33,116 bases of DNA from Candidatus Heimdallarchaeota archaeon (GCA_018238545.1 JABCTC010000037.1:1-33116), one strand, 5' to 3'; counted from the first letter of the stretch, positions 15,738 to 31,765 are shown. The notes: generated from the sequence alone by a model not told the origin. Numbers and translations are program-made.

Positions 15738-15776
15738 TTTACTTCCATCCTTTTAACTCAATTTTCATTCAAATCT

Positions 15777-16748
15777 TCAAAATTTATATTCAGATATTTC
15801 TCTGCAATTTTCTCGTGGAATTTTCAGAGTTGAAGTAATGAATTCAATTAATTCTTCTTTTGTTTCAGCAACTTTTTTCTCAAGGTGATCATAAATTAAT
15901 TCAATAAGTCTTTGCGCATCTACTTGAGAATCATCTGGTTCAGTTATTAGTGATAATACTATTTCTCCCCTTTCTTGAAACACAATTTGACCATAATTTG
16001 AAACGACACTTGCAATCTTCTCTTCACTAAGAGCATGTTCTTCATCTTTTAATACCTCTGAAAGCAAATCCAGAACAGAAATTAGATTTTTGTTTACATC
16101 AGAAAAATCTAAGAACAGTTTAATATTACCAAAAATTGAGGAAATTATCAAACCCTTGGGTGAAACTGTTCGATCGCTGGAAAGGTCCTGTACTTTTCTG
16201 GTAAACCACTCCATAGCGTTATTAATATTCACAGAGGTTTTTACACTTACTTCGAAAATTTGGAAACTGATTTTTGGAAACTTGCTAAGTTCTTGTAGAT
16301 TTAGAGTGTCAATGATTTCATCAAGTCGCATTGATTCTAAATCAGCTTTGTTAGCTAGAAAAGCTAAAGCAATTCTTCTTTCTACCTTTAAATTATTTAT
16401 CAGATACCAAAACCATTCTTTACCCTCTTCAGTTCTCTTCTTGTCAGAAGCGTCAAAAAGAAATAAAACACCATAACTATTTGCGGCGTAATTTATCCAA
16501 AATTGACGTCTTAAGACCTCGTGTCCTCCAACATCAAATATTTTTAGGAGGCTATCTCCAGCTCTATAGGTCTCAAAGTTAACTCCGATTGTTTGAGCAG
16601 TATTGTCTACCCACTCCCCAGTTGCAAGTCTTAACGCTAAACTTGTTTTTCCAGCATTATTTAAACCCAATAAAGTTACAGGGACACCTTTTTTTTCAAA
16701 ATTTAAATTTACCATAATTATCACTTTTCTCCAATTTTTATCATTCAA
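15777..16748 (-). CDS. Arf/Sar-like small GTPase with C-terminal longin/roadblock-like domain
   Basis: GLNNAGKT, QTIG, DVGGH, FW..Y, LANKAD, EVSVK; ~135-aa C-terminal extension. True start may be ATG 16715. Confidence 0.85.
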   Translation of the reverse strand: MNDKNWRKVIIMVNLNFEKKGVPVTLLGLNNAGKTSLALRLATGEWVDNTAQTIGVNFETYRAGDSLLKIFDVGGHEVLRRQFWINYAANSYGVLFLFDASDKKRTEEGKEWFWYLINNLKVERRIALAFLANKADLESMRLDEIIDTLNLQELSKFPKISFQIFEVSVKTSVNINNAMEWFTRKVQDLSSDRTVSPKGLIISSIFGNIKLFLDFSDVNKNLISVLDLLSEVLKDEEHALSEEKIASVVSNYGQIVFQERGEIVLSLITEPDDSQVDAQRLIELIYDHLEKKVAETKEELIEFITSTLKIPRENCREISEYKF

Positions 16749-16754
16749 ATTTCT

Positions 16755-18071
16755 TTACTCGACAAACACAACTTCCCTAAATTGTGAAAGTTCCTCTTTT
16801 GTCATTCTATTCGGATATTCAAACTTGTCTATCAATTCGCAGAATCTTTTTTCTATGCTTATATTTGAAATCAAAAATTCTGTTTTTCTATTTGGTAAAA
16901 TCACAGCAATAAGGTAATATTGTTTTCCTCTCATACGATGATCGAGAGGAATATCATCTTTTCCATGGAAAGCATATATTATTGTTCTATAATTTTCCAA
17001 TTTGGGTGCTGGAATAGGTCCAAAAACCCCAATCGGTTGAGTATTTCCTTGAGCAATACTAGTGTAACACATAGTTGAGAAATATTCAGGAGCTATTGCT
17101 ATACTTCTAAGGTCCTCTTTGACTAGTTCACCTCCAAAAGAAGCGAATCTGAAAAGTGCGACACCTATATTATCTTCGTTTGCCATGGACCTTCTCAGAT
17201 TCTTAATCTCTTCCTCTTGTTTGAGATGATAACTAGCATCATTTAAAGTCAGAATGAGTGTTGTTTCTTCACCTTTTGTAACTTGGGTGAGTTTTACATG
17301 ACTTGGAAACTCAGAACCGTCTTTTCTTCTTATGTTGTAGATCAACCCTTCCACAGTATCCCCTTCTAGGAGTATAAAGGTGAGATCAGGAAAGATATTG
17401 TTAATGAGGGTTGATGAGGTTTTCAGTTCTTCTGACGTGTAACCAGTCATCATTTCGAACATTTGATTAGCAAAAAGAAACATTCCTTTTGAATCGATGG
17501 ATGCAATACCTGAGGAGATACTCTGAATTATTTTTGTTGTCTCAGTTGATTCGTTATCCTTTTGTTTCTGTTTATCCACTTTTTGTAAACCTATATAGAC
17601 AATAGGTAGAATTTCTCTAAGTTCACCAATAATCTTTTGAGTATCAGAAGATAAATCATTTAGTGGTATTTCTAGCAGAAACTCCAAATCTCCGTGAAAA
17701 ATAAAAGGATAATAAATAGTGGGAGTGTTTTTCCTTTTTGAAATTGATCTTTTCCTAAGAACAGGTTTTGTAAGTGATTTTATTCTAGTAATGAGTTTTT
17801 CATCTAGAATTGCAAACCGTTCAAGTTTTTCATCCTTTCTTTTTGAAGCTATTACACTATTGTCACTTTTGTATTGACGATAGAAAATACAATCGTCATT
17901 ATTGTATAATTCATGAAGCAAAATAAGCAATTTATCTAAGATTTCTGAAACTGACGATGCATCTATTAAGGAATGTAAGAACTGAATGAATGAATTATTT
18001 TCTATTATTTGTATTTGAGAATTTTCTCTCTCTCGTTTTGTATCATAGGTTGAAGTGGTCAAATCAATCAC
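16755..18071 (-). CDS. GAF-like + PAS + unknown (possibly longin/uDENN-like) C-terminal domain protein
   Basis: PAS: IIQSISSGIASIDSKG..LFANQMFEMMTGY...RKDGSEFP. N-terminal GAF-like pattern. C-terminus GVALFRF...FGPIP...YAFHGKD...RMRGKQYYLIAVI. Confidence 0.75.
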   Translation of the reverse strand: MIDLTTSTYDTKRERENSQIQIIENNSFIQFLHSLIDASSVSEILDKLLILLHELYNNDDCIFYRQYKSDNSVIASKRKDEKLERFAILDEKLITRIKSLTKPVLRKRSISKRKNTPTIYYPFIFHGDLEFLLEIPLNDLSSDTQKIIGELREILPIVYIGLQKVDKQKQKDNESTETTKIIQSISSGIASIDSKGMFLFANQMFEMMTGYTSEELKTSSTLINNIFPDLTFILLEGDTVEGLIYNIRRKDGSEFPSHVKLTQVTKGEETTLILTLNDASYHLKQEEEIKNLRRSMANEDNIGVALFRFASFGGELVKEDLRSIAIAPEYFSTMCYTSIAQGNTQPIGVFGPIPAPKLENYRTIIYAFHGKDDIPLDHRMRGKQYYLIAVILPNRKTEFLISNISIEKRFCELIDKFEYPNRMTKEELSQFREVVFVE

Positions 18072-18095
18072 TCATCAGCTCATTTGATAATCCAT

Positions 18096-18995
18096 TTAGA
18101 ATTCCCATTTTATTGATTCAGCAAGGTTCTTGATTACTTCCTTATCTATTTTCAATTCTCTTTTAATTCTTGATAATACTTCAAAGAACATAGTTAGACC
18201 TGTTTCTCTTGCAAGGCTCTGTTCATCGTCTTTATCAACATAGAGAATTGCGTAGTAATCACCTTTCTTGAGCATGTGAACAACAAAATTATCAATATTA
18301 ATCGAAGGCAATGAATCAATCATTTTCAACGAGTGAGCACGGAATACTTGTTGAACATCCAGCAGATCGTTTTTTTTCTCATTTTCTATTAGTATTTCTT
18401 CTACTATTGGTTCAAGTCTTTCATCCAACATTTCAAAAGCATAGATGTTTATTGTTGGTTTAGCCTCCATTCTTCTTCTTATCGACTGAGACAACCAAGT
18501 CCAACACTCTTGAATGTTCTCACCTGAAAGACTTGAAGTTTCAAAAACTCTAAAGCTTTTCAATGGTGACTCACTGAATTTTGTTAAATCTAACTGTTTA
18601 ACAATATTCTCTAAACTGAGTATATCTTCTAAATCTGATTTATTGGCAAAGAAAGCAAAATTCGCATCTTTAGGAATCCATTCTTCTACTTTCCATAACC
18701 ATTCCTTTACAAGTTCCATTCTGTTTTTGTCTGATCTATCAAAAACAAAAATGCAACCTTGACAAGAAGAAACAAAGTTTTCCCAGAAGTTGGATCTAAA
18801 TGATTGATGCCCACCAAGGTCTACAACATCAAAGCGGAAATCCTTTTCCTTAATAATTGAAAGATCATATCCTACTGTTGGATGGAAATCTGCTCTAAAC
18901 TCACCTGTTTTTAACCTATGAACAAATGTTGTTTTTCCAGCTTTTTCAAGCCCTGTAATAGCAATTAATGGATGAATTTTCTTTTTAATACTCAT
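18096..18995 (-). CDS. Arf/Sar-like small GTPase with C-terminal longin/roadblock-like domain
   Basis: GLEKAGKT, PTVG, DLGGH, FANKSD, ETSS; ~120-aa C-terminal extension. Confidence 0.87.
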   Translation of the reverse strand: MSIKKKIHPLIAITGLEKAGKTTFVHRLKTGEFRADFHPTVGYDLSIIKEKDFRFDVVDLGGHQSFRSNFWENFVSSCQGCIFVFDRSDKNRMELVKEWLWKVEEWIPKDANFAFFANKSDLEDILSLENIVKQLDLTKFSESPLKSFRVFETSSLSGENIQECWTWLSQSIRRRMEAKPTINIYAFEMLDERLEPIVEEILIENEKKNDLLDVQQVFRAHSLKMIDSLPSINIDNFVVHMLKKGDYYAILYVDKDDEQSLARETGLTMFFEVLSRIKRELKIDKEVIKNLAESIKWEF

Positions 18996-19032
18996 ACTTA
19001 TCCCAATTAATTCTCTGCAAGATATATTAACT

Positions 19033-19075
19033 CTATATCGAAAAGAATGTGAAAAAATAGGGAAAAATAGGGAAA
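19033..19075 (-). promoter_or_regulatory. conserved upstream motif, copy 1 (upstream of the leftward GTPase operon)
   Basis: Minus strand TTTCCCTATTTTTCCCTATTTTTTCACATTCTTTTCGATATAG; 37/43 ungapped identity to copy 3. Confidence 0.7.
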
Positions 19076-19172
19076 AGGTTTTTGTATTATGAAAAGATAT
19101 CGTCTAGTTAATACTTAATAGATTGAGGTCAATTAATAACTTATCTTGATGTATTAGAAGAGGGGATATCAC

Positions 19173-22100
19173 TTGGGTATTGGAACAATCAGCATACAAT
19201 TGCTGTTGGACATAGCAGATTTTATCTATATTGCAGTTGATGTTAATCAAAAAGTCACTTTAGTTAATAAAAAAGGATGCGAGATTCTTGGTTATTCAGA
19301 GGATGAGATTATTGGTAAGGACTGGTTCGATAATTTTCTCCCAAAAGGAGTTGCTAAGGAAATTAAATCTAGTTTTATTAAACGAATTGATGAAAAAGAA
19401 GAGTTCAAACTTACTAAGAGCTATTCTATATTAACAAAGGAAGGAGAGGAAAGATTAATTTCTTGGCAAAGCACTTTTTACATTGATAAGGAGGGAAATT
19501 TAAGTGGTGTTTTATGTTCAGGAGAGGATATTACAGAAAAACGTAAAATGGAAGTAGAATTAGAGAAAGAAAGAAAAACAACGAAACAATGTTTAGAAAT
19601 TGCAAATGTCGTTTTAATTGCAATTGATGCGAATGAAAATGTTACATTAGTCAACAAAAAGGGTTGTGAACTATTAGGCTATGAACACGAAGAGATAATT
19701 GGAAAAAATTGGTTTGATAATTTTCTACCCAAAAGAATATGTAACAAAACAAAGGAAGTTTTTAAAAAGATAATGAATGATGAAATTGCTCAATCTGAGT
19801 ACTATGAGAATCTCCTTCTTACTAAAGATGGCGAAGAGAAACTAATAGCATGGGATAATACCGATATTAGAGATGAAGAAGGAAGAATCATAGGAACTTT
19901 AAGTTCAGGAAGAGACATTACTGAAAAGAGACAAGCAGAAGAAAAACTGAACGAAAGAGAAAGATTATCAAATATCATCCTCAACCATGCTTTTCAATTA
20001 ACTGGAATTTTAGATCTTGAAGGCAGATTACTTCAAATCAATCAAACAGCTCTAGATTTTGCAGGATTGAAGGATGAAGATGCAATCGGAAAGTTGATCT
20101 GGGATACATATTGGTGGTCTCATTCAGAGGAAGAAAGAATTAGATTACGAAAGAATATAAGAAGAGCTTCCAAAGGGAAAATTATTCAAGATGAAATTAC
20201 AAATATAGATAAGAACGGCTATATTCGGACTATGGATTTTTCTGTGAAACCAATAACAGATAATAGAAGTAATGTTACTTCATTTATAATTGAAGGACAG
20301 GACATTACTGAGAAGAAACTGGTATATTCGAACCTTCTTAAAAGTGAACATAAGTTCAGAAGTATTTTCAATCATTCCAATGATGGATATATTTTAAGAA
20401 CAGTCGAAGGTATTATTTTGGAAGCAAATCCTAGATTTCTTGAGATGTTTGGATACGAATCTTCTGAGGTTATTTCTAATAATACAATGTTTATCAACAC
20501 ATTTGAAACTGAAGAAGAACATAAAAGAAGAGGGAAAGAAATCGAAAAGAAAGGATATGCTATGTTCGAAACTTTAGCCAAAAGAAAAGATTGTTCTATT
20601 TTTCCAATGGAAGCAAATGCAGTTAAACTATTACTTGGTAGCGAAGAAGTAATCTTTGTAATTTTTAGAGACATCACTGAAAGGAAAGAAATTGAAGAAA
20701 AAATCAAATCTTCAGAAGCGTTGTACAGAGCACTTTTCGCATATACAGGTACAGGAATGATGCTATTAGAAGAAGACTTTACCATAACACTAGTCAATGA
20801 TCTATTGATAGAAAAATCAGGTATCTCACAAGAAGAATTTATTGGTAAAAAATGGACAGATTTTGTTCAGAAAGAAGAAAGAGAAAATATAACAAAAGCA
20901 GTCAAAAGGATGAATATAGATTTCATTCCACCATTGACTTTTGAAACCTCGGAGTTTAACATATTTGGGGAAAACAAAACTCTACTAGTAACAATAGGAA
21001 TTATTCCTGAAACAAAACAACAAATAGCTTCACTAATTAATATAACTGAACAGAAAAAACTTGAAAAAGAACTTAGAGAAAGTGAAGAAAAATACAGAGA
21101 TCATTTTGATAAATCACCTATTGGTTTAATTCAAAATAAACCTAATGGAGAAATTATTGCTTGTAATCCTGCTTTCTTGAAATTTTTTGGCTATGAAAGT
21201 GTGGAAGAAATAAAGAAACTTCACGTTGAAGAGTTCTATTTTGATTTAGAAGACAGCAAGGAAATTCTTGGAAAATTTGATACAGAAGGTTCTTATTATA
21301 ATCGTCTTATGAAGGCGAAAAAGAAAGATGGTTCTCTTTTTTGGATTGAGTTGTACTCTCGAGTTATCTATGATGAGAATAATGATGCTACTTATCACAA
21401 TTCATCTTTGATAGATGTAACGGAGAAGAAAATAAATGAAGAAATGTTAGTAGAAAGTGAAGAAAGACTTAGAAATCTGTTTGAAAACATCCCCCTTGCT
21501 ATTTCTATTGATTCCTTGGATGGAGGATTAATCGATATAAATCCGGCTTTTTGGAAGCTTTTTGGATATAGCAATAAAGAAGAATGTCTCTCAACCCCTT
21601 TTGCTAATCATTGGTTCAATATCAGAGATCGTGAAAGACTTTATGATTTATTACGTCAAAGGAATTTTGTTTATAACTTTGAAACAAAACGTTCTAGAAA
21701 AGATGGAAGCGAATTCTGGGGTTCAATCACTGCCATAGCTCAGATGGATACTTCAGGAGAAAGAATATACTTCACAGCACTTAGAGACATCACAACTAAA
21801 AAGCAAAGAGAGGATGAGCTGAGAAGACAAACCTTGAGACATCATTTGGAAGAATCTCATTTGTATCTATCAGAAGAAGAGCGCCCATATATTTCAAAAG
21901 AAGTTTTTTATGATTTGCTAAGAGTTGGATATAATGGTCTCGTTCTATCAAGATTACCTGAAACTGAATGGAAGAAAGATACAAATTATGAATTTGATTT
22001 CTTTAGAATAGCTGAAAAAGGGCACCTAAAAACCATCTCTTCCGAGTTAAGCAAGATAGAACAACTAATAGAAGAACTTCCAAACAAGCACGTTATAGTT

Positions 22101-22517
22101 ATTGATAGGCTCGATTATCTCATTGCTAAGAATGGTTTTGAGACCACTTTGTTCCTCATCTTTAGATTAATGGACATTGCCTACCTCTCTAATCACATAA
22201 TCATTGTAACACTTGATCCTGCAACTATCAATGAAAAAGAGAGTAGATTATTGAGAAAAGAGATGCGAATGATTAAATCCTTAGCTGAAGCTACTCTGCC
22301 TGAAGAACTAATCGAGATATTGGAATTTGTTCATAAAAGGAATATTAAAGGAAACAAACCTTCCTATACAGATATTGTTGAAGCTTTCAATATAAGTAGA
22401 CCTACAGCGAGGAAACGAATAAAGGATTTAATCAGCGACGATTACACATATGAATTAACTAAAGGAAGAAGTAAAGTTCTTGGGATAACAGCAAAAGGAA
22501 AAGCTATTTTTGATTGA
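19173..22517 (+). CDS. multi-PAS (7x) - DUF835 - winged-HTH one-component regulator
   Basis: Seven PAS/PAC units ending in DITE-type motifs; DUF835-like VIVIDRLDYLIAKNGF...LDP; C-terminal PSYTDIVEAFNISRPTARKRIKDL...ITAKGK wHTH. TTG start after gagggg. Confidence 0.85.
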   Translation: MGIGTISIQLLLDIADFIYIAVDVNQKVTLVNKKGCEILGYSEDEIIGKDWFDNFLPKGVAKEIKSSFIKRIDEKEEFKLTKSYSILTKEGEERLISWQSTFYIDKEGNLSGVLCSGEDITEKRKMEVELEKERKTTKQCLEIANVVLIAIDANENVTLVNKKGCELLGYEHEEIIGKNWFDNFLPKRICNKTKEVFKKIMNDEIAQSEYYENLLLTKDGEEKLIAWDNTDIRDEEGRIIGTLSSGRDITEKRQAEEKLNERERLSNIILNHAFQLTGILDLEGRLLQINQTALDFAGLKDEDAIGKLIWDTYWWSHSEEERIRLRKNIRRASKGKIIQDEITNIDKNGYIRTMDFSVKPITDNRSNVTSFIIEGQDITEKKLVYSNLLKSEHKFRSIFNHSNDGYILRTVEGIILEANPRFLEMFGYESSEVISNNTMFINTFETEEEHKRRGKEIEKKGYAMFETLAKRKDCSIFPMEANAVKLLLGSEEVIFVIFRDITERKEIEEKIKSSEALYRALFAYTGTGMMLLEEDFTITLVNDLLIEKSGISQEEFIGKKWTDFVQKEERENITKAVKRMNIDFIPPLTFETSEFNIFGENKTLLVTIGIIPETKQQIASLINITEQKKLEKELRESEEKYRDHFDKSPIGLIQNKPNGEIIACNPAFLKFFGYESVEEIKKLHVEEFYFDLEDSKEILGKFDTEGSYYNRLMKAKKKDGSLFWIELYSRVIYDENNDATYHNSSLIDVTEKKINEEMLVESEERLRNLFENIPLAISIDSLDGGLIDINPAFWKLFGYSNKEECLSTPFANHWFNIRDRERLYDLLRQRNFVYNFETKRSRKDGSEFWGSITAIAQMDTSGERIYFTALRDITTKKQREDELRRQTLRHHLEESHLYLSEEERPYISKEVFYDLLRVGYNGLVLSRLPETEWKKDTNYEFDFFRIAEKGHLKTISSELSKIEQLIEELPNKHVIVIDRLDYLIAKNGFETTLFLIFRLMDIAYLSNHIIIVTLDPATINEKESRLLRKEMRMIKSLAEATLPEELIEILEFVHKRNIKGNKPSYTDIVEAFNISRPTARKRIKDLISDDYTYELTKGRSKVLGITAKGKAIFD
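19524..19926 (+). repeat. ~400-bp PAS-coding segment duplicated at 24107-24509
   Basis: Collinear high-identity DNA at a constant offset of 4583, from gaggata(t/c)acagaaaaacgtaaaat to ttactgaaa. Confidence 0.85.
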
Positions 22518-22521
22518 CTTT

Positions 22522-22547
22522 TTTCCCTATTTTTCCACGTTTTTTCA
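22522..22547 (+). promoter_or_regulatory. conserved upstream motif, copy 2 (upstream of the histidine kinase operon)
   Basis: TTTCCCTATTTTTCCACGTTTTTTCA, followed at the same spacing as in the other copies by TTTC and GTTA. Confidence 0.65.
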
Positions 22548-22633
22548 TTAATATTTCTAAATTTAGTTATAGAGATAAAAGAATGTTAAACTAAAAGAAT
22601 ATCTGAAAAGATGTAGATCTCTTTCAAAAAACT

Positions 22634-25600
22634 GTGATTAAATTGCGTGTACAACCAGAAACTAATAGCAAAATTGAGAAGAATTCCAATGATTTAGCTT
22701 ATTTCTCTGGAAGATTTGATGATTTAGGTGAAAACCTATTGAAACTATCTCCTAACGAGCATATCTGTACTATTTATCGAAAGGATGAGGATAAGATAGA
22801 TTCTATAATGGAATTCCTTAAAACAGGCATAGTAAAAAAAGAGAGATGTGTAATCATAGTTGATAATAAAACTATAGAAGATATTCAAACAAAGATAAAG
22901 GCTTCAAAAGAAATTAAGAATCTTCTCAATACTTCTGCATTAGAGATCGTAGATTCAGAAGATATTTATGGTAATAAATCTGAGTTCAATCTAGCTAGAA
23001 CTATTGAATCAATTGAAGCTCATTTAGAAATTCCACAAGAAGACAAGTTCAATGGATTAAGGTTAAGCATTGAGATTTTACCTTTAAACAATAAGGACTC
23101 AACTATGAATATAAGTATGGAACTTCATTCATTTTTCGATAAACTCATTTCAAATAAAGATATTAGTTTTTTCTGTTTATATAACGAATACAAATTCGAT
23201 TCTAGAACGCTATTAGAGGCTATTATTACACACTCTAAGTTAATTTTTAATGGTTATTTATGTAGAAATGTTTTATTTATGGACCCTCATCAACTTCAAT
23301 TAATACTAGAAGATAGGCTAGATGAAACACTCTACAAAAAAACAGTCTACGAAATCGTTCAAAGGGAGATAGCTGAACAAAAAAGAGAGAAAGAAGTTTC
23401 TCACATTCAAACAGAAACTCTCAAAGGCATAAATGATTCTGCCTTTATTATAGATTTTAAAGGCAATATACTTGAAGTAAACGAAGCTGCATACAAAACA
23501 AGAGGATATACAGAAGAAGAGATGCTAAGTCTGAATATTTTAGACATTATGACCTCAGTAAATAGAGACTTATTTGATTCGAGAATTGAAGAACTAAAGA
23601 AAAAGGGAGAGATAACATTTGAAACAACTCATAATTGTAAATATGGGTCAGTATTAGATGTTGAGTTTAAGGCAAAAATTATCAGTTATGATAATCAACA
23701 ATCTATTTTAAGTGTTGGAAGAGATATAACTGAAAGAAGAATCGCTAAAGAAGAAGCAAAAACTAGCGAAGAAAAGTTTCGTACTCTTTTTAATGAAATG
23801 AAACAAGCTTACGCCTTATATGAAGTAATATATGATAGAAAAGGTGACCCTGAAGATGCAATATTAGTAGAAGTTAATTCAGAATACGAAAAATTAACAA
23901 ATAAGAAGAGAGAGGAAATAATTGGTAAGAAAATAACAGAAATCTATCCTAACATGAAGAAACAAGAGGTTAATCCAATAGTAATTCTAGGAAGAACCAT
24001 GATAACAGGACAGACTGTAATATCAGAGTACTATAACAAAGATATTGGTAAATGGCTTTTAGCAAAATCTTTTTCTCCAATGAGAGATCATGTTGCAGTA
24101 TTATATGAGGATATCACAGAAAAACGTAAAATAGAAGGAGAATTAGAGAAAGAAAGAAAAACAATGAAACAATATTTAGACATTGCAAATATCATCCTAA
24201 CTGTAATTGATACAAATGAAAATGTTATATTAGTCAACAAGAAGGGTTGTGAACTTTTAGGCTATGATAAAGAAGATATAATTGGAAAAAATTGGTTTGA
24301 CAATTTTCTACCTGAGAGAGTTCGAGAAGAAACAAAAGAAATTTTTCAAGAACTATTAGCAGGTAAAATAACACAATCTGAGTCTCATGAGAACCTGATT
24401 CTTACTAAAGATGGTGAAGAGAGATTAATTGCATGGGATAATACCTTCATTAGGGATGAAGAAGGAAAAATTATAAGAACTTTAAGTTCGGGAAAAGATG
24501 TTACTGAAATAAGAAAAACTCAAAGAGAACTTAAAGACAGCGAAGAAAAATACAGGATGATTTTTGATAACACTAATGATGCAATATATCTTTATAGTAT
24601 TGATGAACAGATTCTATCAAATTTTATTGAAGTTAATGATGTAGCCTGTAATATGTTAGGTTATACTAAAGATGAGTTCAGAAAAATGTCTCCAGTTGAT
24701 ATAGCCTCAAAGGAAATTAAAAAGCAAATTCCAGAGATAATTAGCAAACTTACAACATTAAAAAACCTAACCTTTGAAGGGACTCATTGTACAAAAGAAG
24801 GGAAAATAATTCCAGTTGAAGTTAGTGCTCATACTTTTTATTATCACAACAAACAAATGGTATTAACAATTGCTAGAGATATTTCTGAAAGGAAAAAATC
24901 TGAAGAGAAATTAAGTAAGTTGAATGAAGAACTAGAAGAGAAGGTTATTCAGAGAACTTACCAAATGGAAACATTGTACAATATTATTAAAGATATATCT
25001 GAAACTTTTGATTTAAAAGAAGCCATGGAAATTATTGCTAAGTATATTTCACAGTTAATTGATTATGATATCATTGTCCAGCTAATAACTCAAGAGGGAT
25101 TAAACCTCATTCAAATTGGAGCACCAAAGGGTAATAAAGAAGTAATCGATGATTTTCTAAAAACAGTTAAGGATGAATTAGTAGAAATAAATCCTGATGC
25201 TTCAACCAATCGCGATTCTACAACTATTATTACGTCAAATGAGAAGAAACTTCAAAAAATTTCATCTCGCTTATCCATACCGCTTATTGCAGAGGATAAG
25301 GTTGTTGGACTTATTGTTGTAGGTTCAGAGCAAGAGGATGCTTATATTGAAGAAGAGATCTGGTTCTTGTATAAAATAGCGGACAATATTTCTCATACTC
25401 TTCAAAGATTAAAGGTAATTATAACAGCAAAGGATGAATTAGAAACAGTTCTCAATCATACATCTGACGGCGTCATTCTCTTGAATAGTCAAGAATCTGT
25501 AGTAATGGTGAATAAAGCTGCAAATAGATTTTTAGAGATAATCAAAGATTCTAAGACTAATGGAATAAACAATGAAATATTAGACCTTGGAGAGCTAAAA

Positions 25601-26878
25601 CAAATTGGCAAAAAGGAATTATCTCTGAATGGTTATACCTATTATGTCTCTATGAGTCCAATAAAAAGTGATTTTGTTCATGGTTGGCTACTAACTATTC
25701 ATGACATAACTGAAGAAAAAGTGATGCAAAAGAAGATACTGCATCAAGAGAGATTAGCTACATTAGGAAAGATGGCTGGTGGTATCGCTCATGATTTTAA
25801 CAATATTCTTGCCTCTATAATTGGTGCAGCAGATTTCTCTTTAATGAATGCTGATAATATAGAGTCAAAAGAGTTTCTGAATTTAATAATCAAGCAAAGT
25901 GAGAGAGGGGCATCTTTGATAAGACAGATGTTAGACTTTACAAGACAAACAGTGATTCAACCACAACCTGTTTCAATACTTGATTTTATTACAGAATTTT
26001 CTAGAGTTATCAGATCGTCCTTACCGGAAAATATTATTTTATCTGCCAATACACAGGATTGGACAGTTTTAATGGATCAAGTTCAATTGCAACAGCTTTT
26101 TATGAATCTCATATTTAATTCTAGAGATGCTCTTGTTCGTGGAGGTAAAATCAATATCACTGTAGAAGAAATTGATCATTCAAAGATAGTGGACTTTGAA
26201 GAAATAGAAATAGACAAAAATCGAGAATACATTCAGCTTACTATTGAAGACAATGGAGAAGGGATGAATGAACAAACAAGAAAGATGATTTTTGAACCCT
26301 TTTTTACTACAAAAGACCCAGGAAAAGGAAGTGGGCTAGGTTTAGCACAGGTTTATGGTATAGTTAGGCAGTCTAATGGTTATATTAATGTGGAAAGTGA
26401 ATTGAAAGAAGGAACAAAAATTCATATCTACATTCCAAAGCATGAGGGATTGGTAGAAGAAGAGATTGTGGAATCAGCAAGCAATGGAGAAGGAAGAATT
26501 TTACTAGTTGAAGACGATGAAAATGTAAGAGAGATTACCAAAATGATGCTAGAGAACTATGGATTTAGAGTAGTTACTGCAGAAAACGGGAAAATTGCTC
26601 TAGATTTATTTAACGATACCTTTGATTTAGTCTTAACAGACATTATTATGCCTGTTATGGGAGGAGAGAAACTGATCAAGAAGGTATTAGAAATCAATCC
26701 ACAAGTAAAATGCTTAGCTATGACAGGATATTCAGATGTGGATGTACCAGAAGGTATCAAAGTTCTAAATAAACCTATAACAACTTCAAAACTAGTCAAC
26801 TATATTCAAAACGAACTTGATCAAGTAGATCGTCAAGAAAAGAAAGTTCAGAATGAAAAAAGAGAGGATGGTGGTTAA
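22634..26878 (+). CDS. hybrid sensor histidine kinase: MEDS - 4xPAS - GAF - PAS - HisKA - HATPase - REC
   Basis: MEDS (EHICTIY...FLKTGI..KERC...CLYN...THS), H-box GGIAHDFNNIL, N-box NLIFNSRDA, DNGEGM, FEPFFTTK..GKGSGLGL, REC ILLVEDD...TDIIMP...KP. Confidence 0.92.
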   Translation: MIKLRVQPETNSKIEKNSNDLAYFSGRFDDLGENLLKLSPNEHICTIYRKDEDKIDSIMEFLKTGIVKKERCVIIVDNKTIEDIQTKIKASKEIKNLLNTSALEIVDSEDIYGNKSEFNLARTIESIEAHLEIPQEDKFNGLRLSIEILPLNNKDSTMNISMELHSFFDKLISNKDISFFCLYNEYKFDSRTLLEAIITHSKLIFNGYLCRNVLFMDPHQLQLILEDRLDETLYKKTVYEIVQREIAEQKREKEVSHIQTETLKGINDSAFIIDFKGNILEVNEAAYKTRGYTEEEMLSLNILDIMTSVNRDLFDSRIEELKKKGEITFETTHNCKYGSVLDVEFKAKIISYDNQQSILSVGRDITERRIAKEEAKTSEEKFRTLFNEMKQAYALYEVIYDRKGDPEDAILVEVNSEYEKLTNKKREEIIGKKITEIYPNMKKQEVNPIVILGRTMITGQTVISEYYNKDIGKWLLAKSFSPMRDHVAVLYEDITEKRKIEGELEKERKTMKQYLDIANIILTVIDTNENVILVNKKGCELLGYDKEDIIGKNWFDNFLPERVREETKEIFQELLAGKITQSESHENLILTKDGEERLIAWDNTFIRDEEGKIIRTLSSGKDVTEIRKTQRELKDSEEKYRMIFDNTNDAIYLYSIDEQILSNFIEVNDVACNMLGYTKDEFRKMSPVDIASKEIKKQIPEIISKLTTLKNLTFEGTHCTKEGKIIPVEVSAHTFYYHNKQMVLTIARDISERKKSEEKLSKLNEELEEKVIQRTYQMETLYNIIKDISETFDLKEAMEIIAKYISQLIDYDIIVQLITQEGLNLIQIGAPKGNKEVIDDFLKTVKDELVEINPDASTNRDSTTIITSNEKKLQKISSRLSIPLIAEDKVVGLIVVGSEQEDAYIEEEIWFLYKIADNISHTLQRLKVIITAKDELETVLNHTSDGVILLNSQESVVMVNKAANRFLEIIKDSKTNGINNEILDLGELKQIGKKELSLNGYTYYVSMSPIKSDFVHGWLLTIHDITEEKVMQKKILHQERLATLGKMAGGIAHDFNNILASIIGAADFSLMNADNIESKEFLNLIIKQSERGASLIRQMLDFTRQTVIQPQPVSILDFITEFSRVIRSSLPENIILSANTQDWTVLMDQVQLQQLFMNLIFNSRDALVRGGKINITVEEIDHSKIVDFEEIEIDKNREYIQLTIEDNGEGMNEQTRKMIFEPFFTTKDPGKGSGLGLAQVYGIVRQSNGYINVESELKEGTKIHIYIPKHEGLVEEEIVESASNGEGRILLVEDDENVREITKMMLENYGFRVVTAENGKIALDLFNDTFDLVLTDIIMPVMGGEKLIKKVLEINPQVKCLAMTGYSDVDVPEGIKVLNKPITTSKLVNYIQNELDQVDRQEKKVQNEKREDGG
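24107..24509 (+). repeat. second copy of the duplicated PAS segment
   Basis: Matches 19524-19926 (see above). Confidence 0.85.
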
Positions 26879-27269
26879 AATTTATGTTTACAAAAGGAAG
26901 GAAAACCTTGTTAGTAAATACAGTGAAAAGAAAAGAATTTTACTAGTAGAGGATGACGATATGCTACGTGAGATAACTACATTAATTCTTAGGAAATGCC
27001 AATTTGATGTTGTCGAAGCGATTAATGGTTTCGAAGCATTGCAATTGTTTGATAATACTATTGATCTGGTCTTAACAGATATTATCATGCCGAAAATGGA
27101 TGGAATTGAACTAATTCAAGAGCTGCAGAAAAAGGATCCAAATCTGAAATGTATTGCTATAACAGGTTTTTCTAATATAACTGTTCCTCAAGATATCGAG
27201 GTTCTTCAAAAACCAATTGGAGGTAAGAAACTCGTTGCGATCTTAAACGAAAGACTCACAACGGCATAA
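26853..27269 (+). CDS. stand-alone response regulator (receiver domain only)
   Basis: ILLVEDD, LVLTDIIMPKMDG, ITG, KP. Start codon uncertain. Confidence 0.9.
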   Translation: MKKERMVVKIYVYKRKENLVSKYSEKKRILLVEDDDMLREITTLILRKCQFDVVEAINGFEALQLFDNTIDLVLTDIIMPKMDGIELIQELQKKDPNLKCIAITGFSNITVPQDIEVLQKPIGGKKLVAILNERLTTA

Positions 27270-27300
27270 GAAATATCAAAGGAACAGTGAGGTAGAAAAA

Positions 27301-27741
27301 ATGGTAATCAAAGTAACTCTAAACAGTGATGATTTCAGAAAATATAAACACAATAATAAAACAGTTAGAATCCTTCTAGTTGAAGATAATGAAGAAGTTA
27401 ATTTAGTTATTAAAAGATTGCTGGAAAGATTAGGATATGAAGTCATCTCTACTTCAAATGGTAGAACAGCACTGAATTTATATAACAAATCATACGATCT
27501 TGTAATTACAGACCTTATAATGCCAGAAATGGGAGGAGTAGAATTAATCCGAAGGTTAAGGGAACAAAATCCCGGAGTGAGATGTGTAGCAATTACTGGA
27601 TACACAAATCAAGAACTTCCTGAAGGGATACCCGTTTTGAATAAACCATTTTCAACTACATTACTGCTAGAATATGTAACTGGAGTACTAAATGATCAGA
27701 TAACTCTAGAAAAACGAAATAGGGAGAGTATTTCACAATAA
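27301..27741 (+). CDS. stand-alone response regulator (receiver domain only)
   Basis: ILLVEDN, LVITDLIMPEMGG, ITG, KPF; gaggt RBS-like sequence upstream. Confidence 0.9.
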   Translation: MVIKVTLNSDDFRKYKHNNKTVRILLVEDNEEVNLVIKRLLERLGYEVISTSNGRTALNLYNKSYDLVITDLIMPEMGGVELIRRLREQNPGVRCVAITGYTNQELPEGIPVLNKPFSTTLLLEYVTGVLNDQITLEKRNRESISQ

Positions 27742-27795
27742 GGTGTTTCAATCAACAGTGTAGAAAATATGAAAGTTATAATTAGAGGCTGAAGT

Positions 27796-29241
27796 ATGAA
27801 AGTTCAAGAGAATAAAAATCAAGAAAATCAAATATTTTCCATAAGTGAAGATATTTTCAGAGAAATAAGCGACAATATTCAAGTTGGTATTTCAATAGTA
27901 GAAAATGGACATTATATCTTCATGAACAAAGAATCAAAAGAGATTTTCGGTATAACCATTGGGGAAGAAACCAAGAATTTTTCTATGCTAGATTATGTTG
28001 TTCCTGAAGATGCCGACAGGGTTAACAAAATAATTAATTCATCACTTAAAACAGACCAAATACCCGCAGAACTTCAATTTTGGATCATTAGAGAAGATGG
28101 AGAAAGAAGATACTTAAACAATAAATATACTGTCCTTAAGGGAAGAGAAAAAACAAATACTCACTTAATATCAACAATTGATTACACTGAACAACAAATA
28201 GCACTTGATTCATCAAAAATGTTTGAAAAGAAATTCAGAGAAATGTTTAATTATGCGAATGATGCGATGTTTCTTTCAAGAATAAGTGGAGACGAATTTC
28301 TAAGTGATTTTATTGAAGTAAATGATTTAGCGTGTAGTATGCTTGAATATACAAGAGAGGAATTACTTGAAATGAGTTCGCTAGATATTACTGCTCTTGA
28401 AGCAAAAACAACTAATAAAGAGATAATTCGTCAAATTATAAAAGAAGAACAAGGAAATTTTGAAACAATACTAATCAGCAAAATGGGGAAACAAATACCT
28501 GTTGAAATCCAATCTCACTTTTTCAATCTAGAAGGGGAAAGAGTCATTCTGACAATAGCTAGAGATTTAACTGAGCATCTAGAAGCTGAGGAAGAAATCA
28601 AGAATCTTAATGAATCATTAAAGATAATTAATAGCATTTTACGTCATGATTTAAATAATAACCTTTCTGTCATAATGGGAGCTATCACCGCTTACGAGGA
28701 TGTAAAAGAACATATATTGTTGGAGATGACAGTGAAATCAGCTCAAAAGAGTTTCGATCTCATTCAAAAGATGGAAGAATTAGAGAGAGCATTAATTCAA
28801 AAAGAAAATCTAATAAAAATGGATTCTGAAGAGCTATTTAACAAAGTTATTTCAAGTTATTCACCCTTTAATATCACTTTTGAGATTGAAGGTAGCTGTA
28901 GTTTGTATGTTGATGCAGCCTTTACTTCAGTAATTGACAATATTATAAGTAATGCTATTAAACATGGTCAAGCCGATATAATAAAAATTTCAATCAAATC
29001 TAGTGATGGCTTTTGCACGATAAGGATAGCTGATAATGGTTCTGGTATCTTGAATAAACATAAGATCCATGTATTTGAAAGTAGTTTTAAGCATGGTACT
29101 ACAGCTGGAACTGGTCTTGGGTTATATATTACCAAAAAAACCATAGAGAGATATGGGGGAGAGATTACTCTTAAGGATAATTTTCCTAAAGGCACAATTT
29201 TCGAGATTAAGTTGAAGTGTAGAGAGGAAAAGGGATTCTAA
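27796..29241 (+). CDS. PAS-PAS sensor histidine kinase
   Basis: Two PAS domains, H-box ILRHDLNNNL, NIISNAIKHG, DNGSG, GTGLGL. Confidence 0.92.
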   Translation: MKVQENKNQENQIFSISEDIFREISDNIQVGISIVENGHYIFMNKESKEIFGITIGEETKNFSMLDYVVPEDADRVNKIINSSLKTDQIPAELQFWIIREDGERRYLNNKYTVLKGREKTNTHLISTIDYTEQQIALDSSKMFEKKFREMFNYANDAMFLSRISGDEFLSDFIEVNDLACSMLEYTREELLEMSSLDITALEAKTTNKEIIRQIIKEEQGNFETILISKMGKQIPVEIQSHFFNLEGERVILTIARDLTEHLEAEEEIKNLNESLKIINSILRHDLNNNLSVIMGAITAYEDVKEHILLEMTVKSAQKSFDLIQKMEELERALIQKENLIKMDSEELFNKVISSYSPFNITFEIEGSCSLYVDAAFTSVIDNIISNAIKHGQADIIKISIKSSDGFCTIRIADNGSGILNKHKIHVFESSFKHGTTAGTGLGLYITKKTIERYGGEITLKDNFPKGTIFEIKLKCREEKGF

Positions 29242-29245
29242 GTTC

Positions 29246-29288
29246 TTTCCATATTTTTCCCTGTTTTTTCACATCTCTTTCAATATAG
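29246..29288 (+). promoter_or_regulatory. conserved upstream motif, copy 3 (upstream of the rightward pseudo-receiver/GTPase operon)
   Basis: TTTCCATATTTTTCCCTGTTTTTTCACATCTCTTTCAATATAG; inverted relative to copy 1. Confidence 0.7.
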
Positions 29289-29353
29289 TGTTATTACTAA
29301 ATATGATATTATCAATTGAAAAAAAAACTTATAGAACAAGAGGAGTAAATAAA

Positions 29354-29905
29354 TTGAACTCTAAAAACAAAAATGTCAAAGAAGAAAGTGAAACTTCTGA
29401 TGATTCTACAAGAGGCATTTTAGACCTAGTTTCAGAGAAATCTGACAAAAAATTAATCAAGCAATTAAATGATTTTCTAAAATCTAAACTTAAGTTACCA
29501 AGATTTCGAAATAGAGATATAAACAGAGATGTTTTAGTTGTTGCTAGAAACTTTCAAACAAGATATCTTTTCGAGATAATATTAAGAAAACAAGGTTTTT
29601 CAGTTACAACTATATCTAACGTAGATGAAATTTTAGATATAATCAATGGTAATTACAAAGTAATTCTTTTTGATGAAACAGACCACAATACAGAAGACTT
29701 AGATATTATTGAATTGATAAAAATGTCCAATCCTGAAGTAAAACTACTGACAATTTCAAAGAATCTTAAATCTAATCATCAAACAAGTGTTCCCAGTTCT
29801 AATAAAATGGTTTCAAATTACAGAGTTAAAGCTGTAGGTGAATCATCATCTAAAATATCAAATTCATTTACTGTTAAGGAAATTACAATTAGCAAGAGTG
29901 TTTAA
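29354..29905 (+). CDS. degenerate (pseudo-)receiver domain protein
   Basis: VLVVARN..TRYLFEIILRKQGFSV...YKVILFDE...IELIKMSNPEVKLLTIS fits the REC fold but lacks the acidic pair and KP. Start taken as TTG 29354 behind GAGGAG (ORF track starts at 29288). Confidence 0.6.
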   Translation: MNSKNKNVKEESETSDDSTRGILDLVSEKSDKKLIKQLNDFLKSKLKLPRFRNRDINRDVLVVARNFQTRYLFEIILRKQGFSVTTISNVDEILDIINGNYKVILFDETDHNTEDLDIIELIKMSNPEVKLLTISKNLKSNHQTSVPSSNKMVSNYRVKAVGESSSKISNSFTVKEITISKSV

Positions 29906-29907
29906 AA

Positions 29908-30810
29908 ATGGGAACTAGAAAACAACCAGTCAATATCGTGATACTGGGTATAGAGAATGCAGGAAAAACCACTCTCTTAAGAAACATCTCAGGAATGAAA
30001 TTTGCTGAGACTTTGACTACCATTGGTTTGAATGTTGAGATGTTAAAACACAAAGGATTTGATTTCCAAGCAATAGATATCGGAGGACAGCTTCATTTTC
30101 GTGAAACAATGTGGCAATATTACACGACTTTAGCAAAAGGGGCTATTTTCGTATTTGATATTTTTGACAGGAGCAAATTCACAGAAGCTAAAAAATGGTT
30201 TGAATATATTTCACATAGACTTTCAAAAAAAGCAGTTCTAATGTTTCTAGCTAATAAAATAGATCTTAAAGATGAAGACGATACATTTCTAACAACTGAA
30301 GAAATAATAAATATGTTTAAACTTGATGATGTTTTCAGATACCCTGAAAGATCCTTTAGAATATGGGAAACATCAGCTAAAACAGGTGAAAATGTAGATA
30401 ACGCAATTTCATGGATGTTCAATAAACTAGTGGAGTATATCAAAGAGGAAACAAGAATCTCTTTTGTATCGATTTTAAATCAGAACAATGAAATCATATA
30501 TCGGACATCAGTAACCAAGAAAAATGATGAATATGAGACAATCATTAAGAAATGCATTGGTCAGATGAATGATCTTGGTGCAAATGAAAACATGATCTCA
30601 ATACAAGATTGTTCCGCAAGTATAAGAAAAGAAAAGGATTTCAGCGTAGTTGTAGGGGCTGAAAGTAACGTGTCTAAAGACGATCTATCTATTGTAACAC
30701 TATCTATAGCTCAAATAATAAAAGATGACTTTTACCCTCCTGAAAATTTCAAAGAACAATTAGATGAAGTTGTAAACATTGCTCTTCTTCAACAGTTAAA
30801 CAAAAAATAG
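29908..30810 (+). CDS. Arf-like small GTPase with C-terminal longin/roadblock-like domain
   Basis: GIENAGKT, TTIG, DIGGQ, W.YY, LANKID, ETSAK; ~120-aa C-terminal extension. Confidence 0.88.
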   Translation: MGTRKQPVNIVILGIENAGKTTLLRNISGMKFAETLTTIGLNVEMLKHKGFDFQAIDIGGQLHFRETMWQYYTTLAKGAIFVFDIFDRSKFTEAKKWFEYISHRLSKKAVLMFLANKIDLKDEDDTFLTTEEIINMFKLDDVFRYPERSFRIWETSAKTGENVDNAISWMFNKLVEYIKEETRISFVSILNQNNEIIYRTSVTKKNDEYETIIKKCIGQMNDLGANENMISIQDCSASIRKEKDFSVVVGAESNVSKDDLSIVTLSIAQIIKDDFYPPENFKEQLDEVVNIALLQQLNKK

Positions 30811-30814
30811 AGAG

Positions 30815-31765
30815 ATGATTAAAATTAAGAGAACTACCATAGCAATTACCGGATTACCCAAAGCAGGAAAAACATGTTTCACACAGAGACTCATAACAGG
30901 GAATCATGTTGAATCTCAACCTACTTATGGGGTGGATGTAGAATTTGCCTCATATAGGGATCTTCCTTTACAGATCTGGGATATGGGGGGACATATGGCA
31001 TTTAGAACACATATTTGGGAAAATTACATCAAAATGTCTTCTGGATTAATATATATCTTTGATGCTTCAGATTTATCACAGATTGAGGAAAGCGCTGAAT
31101 GGTTTTGGAAATGCTTCTCTTGGATAGAAGATAAGAAAGCCCCCATATTGTTTTTAGCTAACAAATGGGATTTAGTTGAAGATGAAGAAGCTGTAATTAA
31201 TACTATTGTTTCAGGTTTCAGATTAAATGAAATTGCTCTTAAATCTATAGATTCTCCTTTCAGATTCTTCTTCGTATCTGTGAAATCTGGGGCTTACATC
31301 TCCGAAGCTATGAATTGGTTGGTTGTAAAACAGTTTATTGAGAAGAGAAAATTTCAGAATAAAATACTTTCATTAGATATTTTTGTAAAAATCGATAACA
31401 GCATAGCGCATATTCATGATAATTCACGGGAAAGAAATGAAGTTATTGGCACAATTAATACATATAAAAAGAAGTTTGAAGAATCTGATGATAATTCATT
31501 AAATTTGCTCGAAGAAATAAGTTATGACGGTCATAAGGTGCTTTACATTTCATATTCCCAATTATCCCTATTAGTTATTTCTAGAGATGATTTTATTGAT
31601 AGATCAGGATTTTCAAATATCTTGGATAAAATCAAAACAGATCAATGTTTTGAGGATGTTAATGAATTCTATACTTTATACGAAAATATCAAGGATTCAG
31701 TTTCGAATAATTTTCATGTAGATATTACTTCCACACTTAGTTGTGATTTACTAATAACTAATTGA
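30815..31765 (+). CDS. Arf/Sar-like small GTPase with C-terminal extension
   Basis: GLPKAGKT, PTYG, WDMGGH, LANKWD, VSVK; ~135-aa C-terminal extension. Confidence 0.88.
   Translation: MIKIKRTTIAITGLPKAGKTCFTQRLITGNHVESQPTYGVDVEFASYRDLPLQIWDMGGHMAFRTHIWENYIKMSSGLIYIFDASDLSQIEESAEWFWKCFSWIEDKKAPILFLANKWDLVEDEEAVINTIVSGFRLNEIALKSIDSPFRFFFVSVKSGAYISEAMNWLVVKQFIEKRKFQNKILSLDIFVKIDNSIAHIHDNSRERNEVIGTINTYKKKFEESDDNSLNLLEEISYDGHKVLYISYSQLSLLVISRDDFIDRSGFSNILDKIKTDQCFEDVNEFYTLYENIKDSVSNNFHVDITSTLSCDLLITN

Follow-up and report, generated by a model that had tools for sequence, protein, structure and literature searches.

What are three closely similar upstream elements, each built of TTTC(C) units one DNA turn (10–11 bp) apart, doing within a single gene island of an Asgard archaeon, and which protein would read them? 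The question is raised by a 33,116-nucleotide (nt) stretch of DNA from Candidatus Heimdallarchaeota archaeon (GCA_018238545.1, JABCTC010000037.1:1-33116; hereafter designated the window, on which all coordinates are counted). We found that the element, a module of ~55 bases, is a real, strongly selected cis-regulatory element restricted to this one island. With moderate confidence, the copies may further be read as operators of a small, island-restricted regulon, for which the adjacent protein, consisting of seven PAS domains, DUF835, and a C-terminal winged helix-turn-helix (wHTH) (hereafter designated PAS7-DUF835-wHTH), is the predicted DNA-binding factor. The genome (designated G000 where it must be told from others) is an AT-rich Asgard assembly (34% GC, 3.63 Mb, 128 contigs, 92% of the genome assembled), and close homologues come from Candidatus Heimdallarchaeota metagenome-assembled genomes (MAGs).

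A pattern search of the whole window with the 26-nt core gave exactly three matches, at 19050–19075 (−), 22522–22547 (+), and 29246–29271 (+), while no match was obtained in 100 dinucleotide-preserving shuffles with ≤3 mismatches allowed; the core sites and strands given in a preliminary description of this DNA are thus exact. The three modules are as follows.

19028–19080, minus strand: module copy 1 (class 1), with the core at 19075–19050, the fourth TTTC at 19043–19040, an AT-rich octamer at 19039–19032, and GTTA at 19031–19028.
22517–22569, plus strand: module copy 2 (class 2), with the core at 22522–22547, the fourth TTTC at 22554–22557, the AT-rich octamer at 22558–22565, and GTTA at 22566–22569.
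29241–29293, plus strand: module copy 3 (class 3), with the core at 29246–29271, the fourth TTTC at 29278–29281, the AT-rich octamer at 29282–29289, and GTTA at 29290–29293.

Alignment placed the TTTC units of all three copies at offsets 0, 10, 21, and 32 (three phased TTTCC/TTTC units lying within the core, as in copy 1), and the fourth unit is followed in identical register by the AT-rich octamer and GTTA. Copies 1 and 3 are identical at 37 of 43 positions and at 44 of 61 across the longer module. Every copy faces its own downstream operon: copy 1 ends 33 nt upstream of the ATG at 18995 that opens the first Arf-like GTPase operon, copy 2 stands upstream of a hybrid histidine kinase operon, and copy 3 precedes a gene for a protein of 183 amino acids (aa) and two Arf-like GTPase genes. 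T5 and T6 runs open copies 2 and 3, respectively, 4 nt past the stop codons of the candidate regulator and of a PAS kinase, respectively, and copy 1 lies between divergent genes with no co-directional gene upstream. The phasing, the fixed-spacing TTTC and GTTA, the orientation toward the operon, the 37/43 match, and the divergent setting of copy 1, all of which had been noticed in the preliminary description, were borne out by the alignment.

Weight matrices of 26 and 60 positions were built from 16 instances. In the matrix scan of the whole 3.63-Mb assembly, only the three island sites were retrieved, at 41–43 bits on the core with the next best at 20, and a regular expression with ≤5 mismatches found only the same three sites. 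These island-only scans exclude a motif that is common at 3′ ends genome-wide, one of the findings that would have refuted the earlier proposal of an operator. The wider regulon foreseen in that proposal, with actin or other cytoskeletal genes among its members, did not appear, as neither the regular expression nor the matrix gave a further credible site within the assembled 92% of the genome. Near misses elsewhere in the genome lie antisense within long open reading frames (ORFs), with one exception, a weak intergenic site of 14.8 bits on contig C74 (10112–10137, minus strand; L081:3113–3138), which has three TTTTC units 10 bp apart, lies just past a Roadblock/LC7 gene and ~100 nt upstream of a DUF7121 gene, and could be a weak additional site or a chance match. 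The genome contains only 12 TTTTC triplets at 10–11-bp spacing, two of them within the island. When one genome per species was searched with the strict pattern, only six Heimdallarchaeota MAGs matched among 185,579 species.

The distribution within the genus is equally narrow in position. Among 60 related genomes, the core pattern at 0–1 mismatches occurred in the same genus only, always in the syntenic island, and no fewer than seven other species of that genus have the module at syntenic positions. G001 and G023 carry four modules each, in both cases on one contig; G006 has two plus a third recovered by the weight matrix at three mismatches; and G010, G016, and G017, represented by short contigs, show one each. 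The copies fall into four positional classes, of which class 1 is conserved in G001, G023, and G006, and class 3 could be aligned across six species, including G017, where the upstream context differs and the module is intact. The fourth class, situated before a repeat/TPR gene, is present in G001, G023, and G006 and missing in this genome, where the corresponding gap (15737–15777) is 40 nt, without the ~190-nt segment that bears the fourth copy elsewhere (cf. L021:1931–2157), and the repeat/TPR gene is fused into the copy-1 operon.

The class alignments have a sharp left edge ~8 nt before the first unit and are near-invariant through GTTA, beyond which conservation continues partially to Shine-Dalgarno-like sequences and the start codon. 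Pairwise module identity is 0.84–0.93, compared with 0.36–0.46 at the 4-fold degenerate sites of the adjacent GTPase gene between G000 and three other species, and the spacer upstream of the module is 0.57–0.63 identical in classes 1 and 3. The most conserved columns are the C positions and the spacing (2.2 bits). The high module identity relative to the 4-fold sites, together with the weak identity of the GTPase paralogues behind copies 1 and 3 (about 31–39% at the protein level), points to purifying selection rather than a residue of duplication. As judged from these sequence comparisons, the module is under strong purifying selection.

As the candidate reader of the modules, we analyzed the product of the gene that lies between copies 1 and 2.

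19173–22517, plus strand: candidate regulator of 1114 aa, with seven PAS domains, DUF835 (~21894–22265), and a C-terminal winged helix-turn-helix (~22302–22505), as assigned by Pfam and AlphaFold2/Foldseek.

Its DUF835 match (PF05763) reached 69.9–73.3 bits against the Pfam cut-off of 33.1. In the C-terminal 95 residues, Pfam matches to helix-turn-helix (HTH) families remained sub-threshold (HTH_24, E 3e-4, 20.6 bits against a cut-off of 21.9), and among 42 family members DUF6293_C and HTH_24 were matched in 25 and 24, respectively, at E ≤0.01. The AlphaFold2 model of the C-terminal 245 aa, computed with a 42-sequence alignment, has a predicted local distance difference test score (pLDDT) of 90.9 and contains a RecA/KaiC-like alpha/beta domain followed by three helices (H175–189, H196–203, and H207–219) and a beta-hairpin (E223–228 and E231–236); the alignment was required for a confident model, the single sequence giving a pLDDT of only 45. 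With Foldseek, the C-terminal 70–90 residues were matched to MepR, MepR-DNA complexes, MarR, and AF1382 (probability 1.0, root-mean-square deviation 1.8–3.4 Å), and the DUF835 domain to FlaH (4yds, 4wia), RecA, and PH0250, while the top matches to the whole model were ORC2-type ATPase plus winged-helix chains with TM-scores of 0.22–0.30. A profile search of PDB sequences was dominated by PAS domains. According to the model, the C-terminus of the regulator is a MarR-like winged helix-turn-helix fold, in agreement with the wHTH domain recognized earlier, and the regulator is the sole island protein in which a winged-helix fold has been demonstrated (by modelling). Neither a receiver domain nor Trans_reg_C was detected by Pfam in the 1114-aa protein.

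The DUF835 plus C-terminal module (245 aa) belongs to a family of 333 representative clusters at E ≤1e-30, and in all of the best 150 matches listed it is C-terminal, preceded by PAS arrays or receiver domains. Only one other DUF835-wHTH gene, 26% identical, occurs in this genome. Across species, the open frame of the regulator varies from 1001 and 1119 to 1748 and 2020 codons through gain and loss of PAS repeats (L021:5555–10777, L025:1461–7469), and the DUF835-wHTH C-terminus is 80–83% identical despite this variation in length.

More distant orthologues and natural variants in gene content bear on the link between this protein and the modules. In four species (G013, G015, G019, and G021), the regulator orthologues are 40–53% identical in the C-terminal module, and each of these species has 2–4 copies of its own variant, composed of TTTTCTAT-like units, with positions and orientation kept. 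The phasing and the TTTTC core persist in these variants, whereas the remainder of the unit changes jointly across all the copies that a species carries. Directly after the regulator stop codon, phased TTTTC units are present in every orthologue in the genus with cleanly read downstream sequence; gene-adjacent repeats were likewise found in G021, and diverged versions of class 1 in G013, G015, and G019. Collectively, the uniqueness of the module, its selection, and its co-distribution with the regulator agree with the earlier proposal that it is a locus-specific operator for the adjacent protein, the binding itself being predicted.

Two species have lost different parts of the island. In G002, the first GTPase and the TPR protein are retained (89% identical each), together with the PAS protein and a divergent GTPase; no regulator, kinase operon, or 183-aa gene was found there, and the core pattern is absent from its whole genome. 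In its island (L070, G002:C48:4088–7629), two GTPase operons diverge across a 277-nt spacer without repeats. G023, on the other hand, keeps the regulator and four motif copies, and its kinase operon is a 1.3-kb remnant (L023:14400–15800, G023:C107), in which a 264-aa MEDS-bearing ORF and a 110-aa remnant lie between classes 2 and 3; no PAS kinase orthologue was found elsewhere in the G023 genome. This reduction could be a true deletion or a collapse in MAG assembly. Taken together, the two variants speak against maintenance of the motif by the TPR protein, the kinases, or the receivers. By this comparison of gene content, they argue for the regulator, leaving the 183-aa protein as the only equally co-distributed alternative.

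The modules might then be true operators or upstream activating sequences with another reader, be it the 183-aa protein, the TPR protein (12957–15737), a complex of the receivers, or an unlinked transcription factor. We consider this unlikely. The 183-aa protein accompanies the motif in every case and is missing from G002, and the fourth module in related species precedes the repeat/TPR gene. However, G002 retains the TPR protein without any motif, and G023 retains four motifs despite loss of the receivers and most of both kinases; moreover, no DNA-binding domain was seen by Pfam in the 183-aa protein, whose best domain signal is a weak receiver-like match (E 0.02), whereas the regulator alone among the island proteins has a demonstrated winged-helix fold.

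Several observations weigh against the regulator as the reader. Its recognition helix, ISRPTARKRI, is identical in G000, G015, and G019 despite their differing repeat units, so that changes in protein and DNA are not simply matched. Winged helices of the MarR type usually act as dimers on palindromes and not on direct repeats. At 22 loci encoding DUF835-wHTH homologues of another genus, no phased TTTTC triplets were found within 1.5 kb, which indicates that the link between motif and protein does not generalise to the protein family. In G010, G016, and G017, the motif is present and the regulator was not found, but the contigs break off within the island, so that this comparison carries no information; the motif is tracked by the 183-aa protein as closely as by the regulator; and the apparent deletions in G002 and G023, both being MAGs, could be assembly errors.

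How the modules might act was considered from the promoter side. The promoters of 29 tRNA genes show a consensus for the transcription factor B recognition element (BRE) and TATA box, consisting of an A-run followed by TTTAAA, 38–59 nt before the mature 5′ end (median 10.5 bits). This consensus provides a usable promoter model for the lineage. Applied to the three modules and their leaders, the tRNA-derived matrix gave ≤5.3 bits at every position, with a weak BRE/TATA hit in the same register in all three copies, where the fourth TTTC takes the BRE position and the AT-rich octamer that of the TATA box. On the opposite side of copy 1 lies the putative promoter of the regulator.

19076–19172, plus strand: spacer with the inferred regulator promoter; read on this strand, the first repeat gives a purine-rich, BRE-like run and then a T-rich box.

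Within this spacer, only the motif-adjacent T-run and the Shine-Dalgarno region are conserved, and its best BRE/TATA match (6.0 bits) overlaps the reverse-complemented repeats. As far as this overlap suggests, occupancy of copy 1 could also autoregulate the regulator gene.

The archaeal regulators EarA, Ptr2, and TFB-RF1 act from sites just upstream of a weak BRE/TATA, and EarA in particular has four 6-bp sites directly upstream of the BRE of the fla operon (PMC5512572). Because a weak core promoter follows the repeats, and because this placement is typical of archaeal activators, activation is, by analogy, slightly favoured over repression by occlusion. In the proposed mechanism, the three or four direct TTTC(C) units of each module, all facing one side of the helix and running into a weak BRE/TATA-like box, would be occupied by signal-dependent head-to-tail oligomers with one winged helix per repeat. 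The bound oligomer would help TFB/TBP onto the poor core promoter and thereby activate transcription, the two Arf-like GTPase operons and the two-component operon would switch together, and occupancy of copy 1 would also touch the divergent promoter of the regulator. At copies 2 and 3, the T5–T6 runs probably also end transcription of the upstream gene.

T-tracts in helical phase are also typical of curved DNA and of sequence that histones favour, and oligo-T stops archaeal RNA polymerase. The modules, with T-tracts of 4–6 bases every 10–11 bp and with two copies starting 4 nt past the stop of a co-oriented gene, might accordingly serve without any dedicated factor, through curvature, positioning of archaeal histones, or oligo-T termination that insulates neighbouring genes. 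As a full account, this seems quite unlikely. T-runs alone would suffice for such a role, which leaves unexplained why conservation peaks at the C positions and in the spacing; within 3.6 Mb of AT-rich genome, the exact word turns up in a single island, and even phased TTTTC triplets number only 12; copy 1 has no co-directional upstream gene to terminate; and the copies switch together to a species-specific variant in the diverged species. A bacterial-type scan for hairpin terminators, of little information value in an archaeon, found none.

Action at the RNA level, where a pyrimidine-rich 5′ leader would be bound by an RNA-binding protein or a small RNA, is very improbable. In its favour are the strand specificity of the element, its constant orientation toward the downstream genes, and class 1 conservation that runs on to the start codon. 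Against this, there is no Rfam match at gathering score in the whole window, the folds are weak and inconsistent (z-scores −1.5, −0.2, and −2.4) with the repeats unpaired or differently paired in each copy, a 10–11-nt periodicity is natural for duplex DNA and not for RNA, and the tRNA-derived matrix revealed no consensus promoter upstream of copy 1 from which the module could be transcribed. Lastly, that the modules are a functionless leftover of segmental duplication or gene conversion, as copies 1 and 3 before paralogous Arf-like GTPase operons might suggest, is hardly credible, since paralogues with the low identity given above accompany modules matching at 37 of 43 bases, copy 2 precedes an unrelated kinase gene, and module identity stays at 91–93% across species with saturated synonymous sites.

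Returning to the modules as operators of the PAS7-DUF835-wHTH protein, we compared this arrangement with known systems. It resembles those of EarA, Ptr2, and TFB-RF1 in having several short sites right upstream of a sub-consensus core promoter, with 3–4 units abutting a box of ≤5.3 bits. It differs in the protein, which combines a PAS array and an inactivated KaiC domain with a MarR-like winged helix, in the strictly direct units one helical turn apart, and in the occurrence of 3–4 such promoters in one island; activation, moreover, is here a proposal. Winged helices of the OmpR/PhoB and SARP types bind head-to-tail on 10–11-bp direct repeats (pho boxes, for example) just upstream of a core promoter and recruit the polymerase machinery. 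The phased direct repeats upstream of a core promoter are shared with these proteins, the likeness being one of mechanism only, whereas the present regulator has no Trans_reg_C and, unlike OmpR/PhoB, no receiver, would act at an archaeal TBP/TFB promoter, and is proposed to oligomerise through its KaiC/RecA-like domain. In DnaA and Orc1/Cdc6, too, a RecA/AAA-like fold is followed by a winged helix, and arrays of sites in the same orientation suit a head-to-tail oligomer; here, however, only the architecture is shared (hence the low TM-scores), the P-loop is missing, DUF835 being an inactivated KaiC (PMC5847659), and the sites belong to promoters of signalling genes, with no sign of an origin. 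Structurally, the regulator C-terminus is matched best by MepR/MarR, of the family that includes MepR and AdcR, and by archaeal AF1382, but MarR proteins are small dimers on palindromic operators, in contrast to a 1114-aa multi-PAS protein with a direct-repeat candidate operator. In kind, the system is most probably an ordinary transcription factor, here a one-component regulator, with its operators, distinct in the protein family, in the direct-repeat phasing, and in having Asgard Arf-like GTPases as targets.

Asgard archaea, close archaeal relatives of eukaryotes, encode many eukaryote-like small GTPases. We know of nothing reported on the timing and control of their expression and, to our knowledge, no DNA target has been characterised for the DUF835-wHTH family. 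The island offers a candidate circuit in which one sensor regulator would recognize a 26-nt consensus at three or four target promoters and so link PAS environmental sensing and two-component kinases to Arf-like GTPase operons. It also supplies the first candidate DNA target for the DUF835-wHTH module, DUF835 being scarcely mentioned in the literature searched.

A census of signalling proteins in archaea assigns both DUF835 and MEDS to the inactivated KaiC domains (PMC5847659). Domains of this type are found both in the regulator (DUF835, 21894–22265) and at the N-terminus of the kinase that it apparently controls (MEDS, 22643–23250), and DUF835/MEDS hetero-oligomers might form. A wider reading, which we put forward tentatively and regard as doubtful, joins these features: the inactivated-KaiC domain would assemble the sensor head-to-tail, in a DnaA/ORC-like manner, on the phased repeats with one winged helix per turn, the kinase MEDS might co-assemble, and PAS and two-component signals would converge on one nucleoprotein switch for Arf-family GTPase modules. 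Such a switch, if true, would give Asgard small GTPases their first defined transcriptional circuit and the large DUF835-wHTH family its first operator.

The operons that the three modules face are as follows.

12957–18995, minus strand: copy-1 operon, encoding an Arf-like GTPase (18096–18995), a PAS protein (16755–18071), an Arf-like GTPase (15777–16748), and a repeat/TPR protein (12957–15737, 926 aa).
22643–29241, plus strand: copy-2 operon, encoding a MEDS-PAS-GAF-HisKA-HATPase-REC hybrid kinase, two receiver-only proteins, and a PAS histidine kinase.
29354–31765, plus strand: copy-3 operon, encoding the 183-aa protein without a confident domain and two Arf-like GTPases (300 and 316 aa).

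Intergenic gaps in the copy-1 operon are 6–40 nt. Orthologue alignment refined the start of the copy-2 operon to a conserved TTG behind a Shine-Dalgarno-like TGGGAT/TGTGAT. Similarly, the mechanical ORF call at 29288–29905 opens with a GTG that belongs to module copy 3. Across window positions 29288–29354, orthologues are interrupted by a stop codon or carry indels, and conservation places the start at the TTG at 29354, which a GAGGAG-like ribosome-binding site precedes. With the real start at 29354, copy 3 thus stands ~80 nt upstream of its gene.

Repeats resembling the core were also encountered outside the genus. A loosened pattern gave 48 contig matches in metagenomes, which were rejected as unrelated repeat families or 10-mer tandem arrays, since the second half of the module is missing from all of them. 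A different conserved element is shared by about 20 short contigs from one metagenome (loci L089–L134, many of them from Ga0209679), unrelated to the Heimdallarchaeota module, in which a motif-like 26-mer with GCCCC in its second unit is followed by a conserved 25-nt tail. In another family of the same order, five TTTCCA units at exact 10-bp spacing (L046:5115–5170, G035:C4) lie between two small ORFs without Pfam matches, beside a DNA methylase gene, and represent a similar phased array in a different lineage and context.

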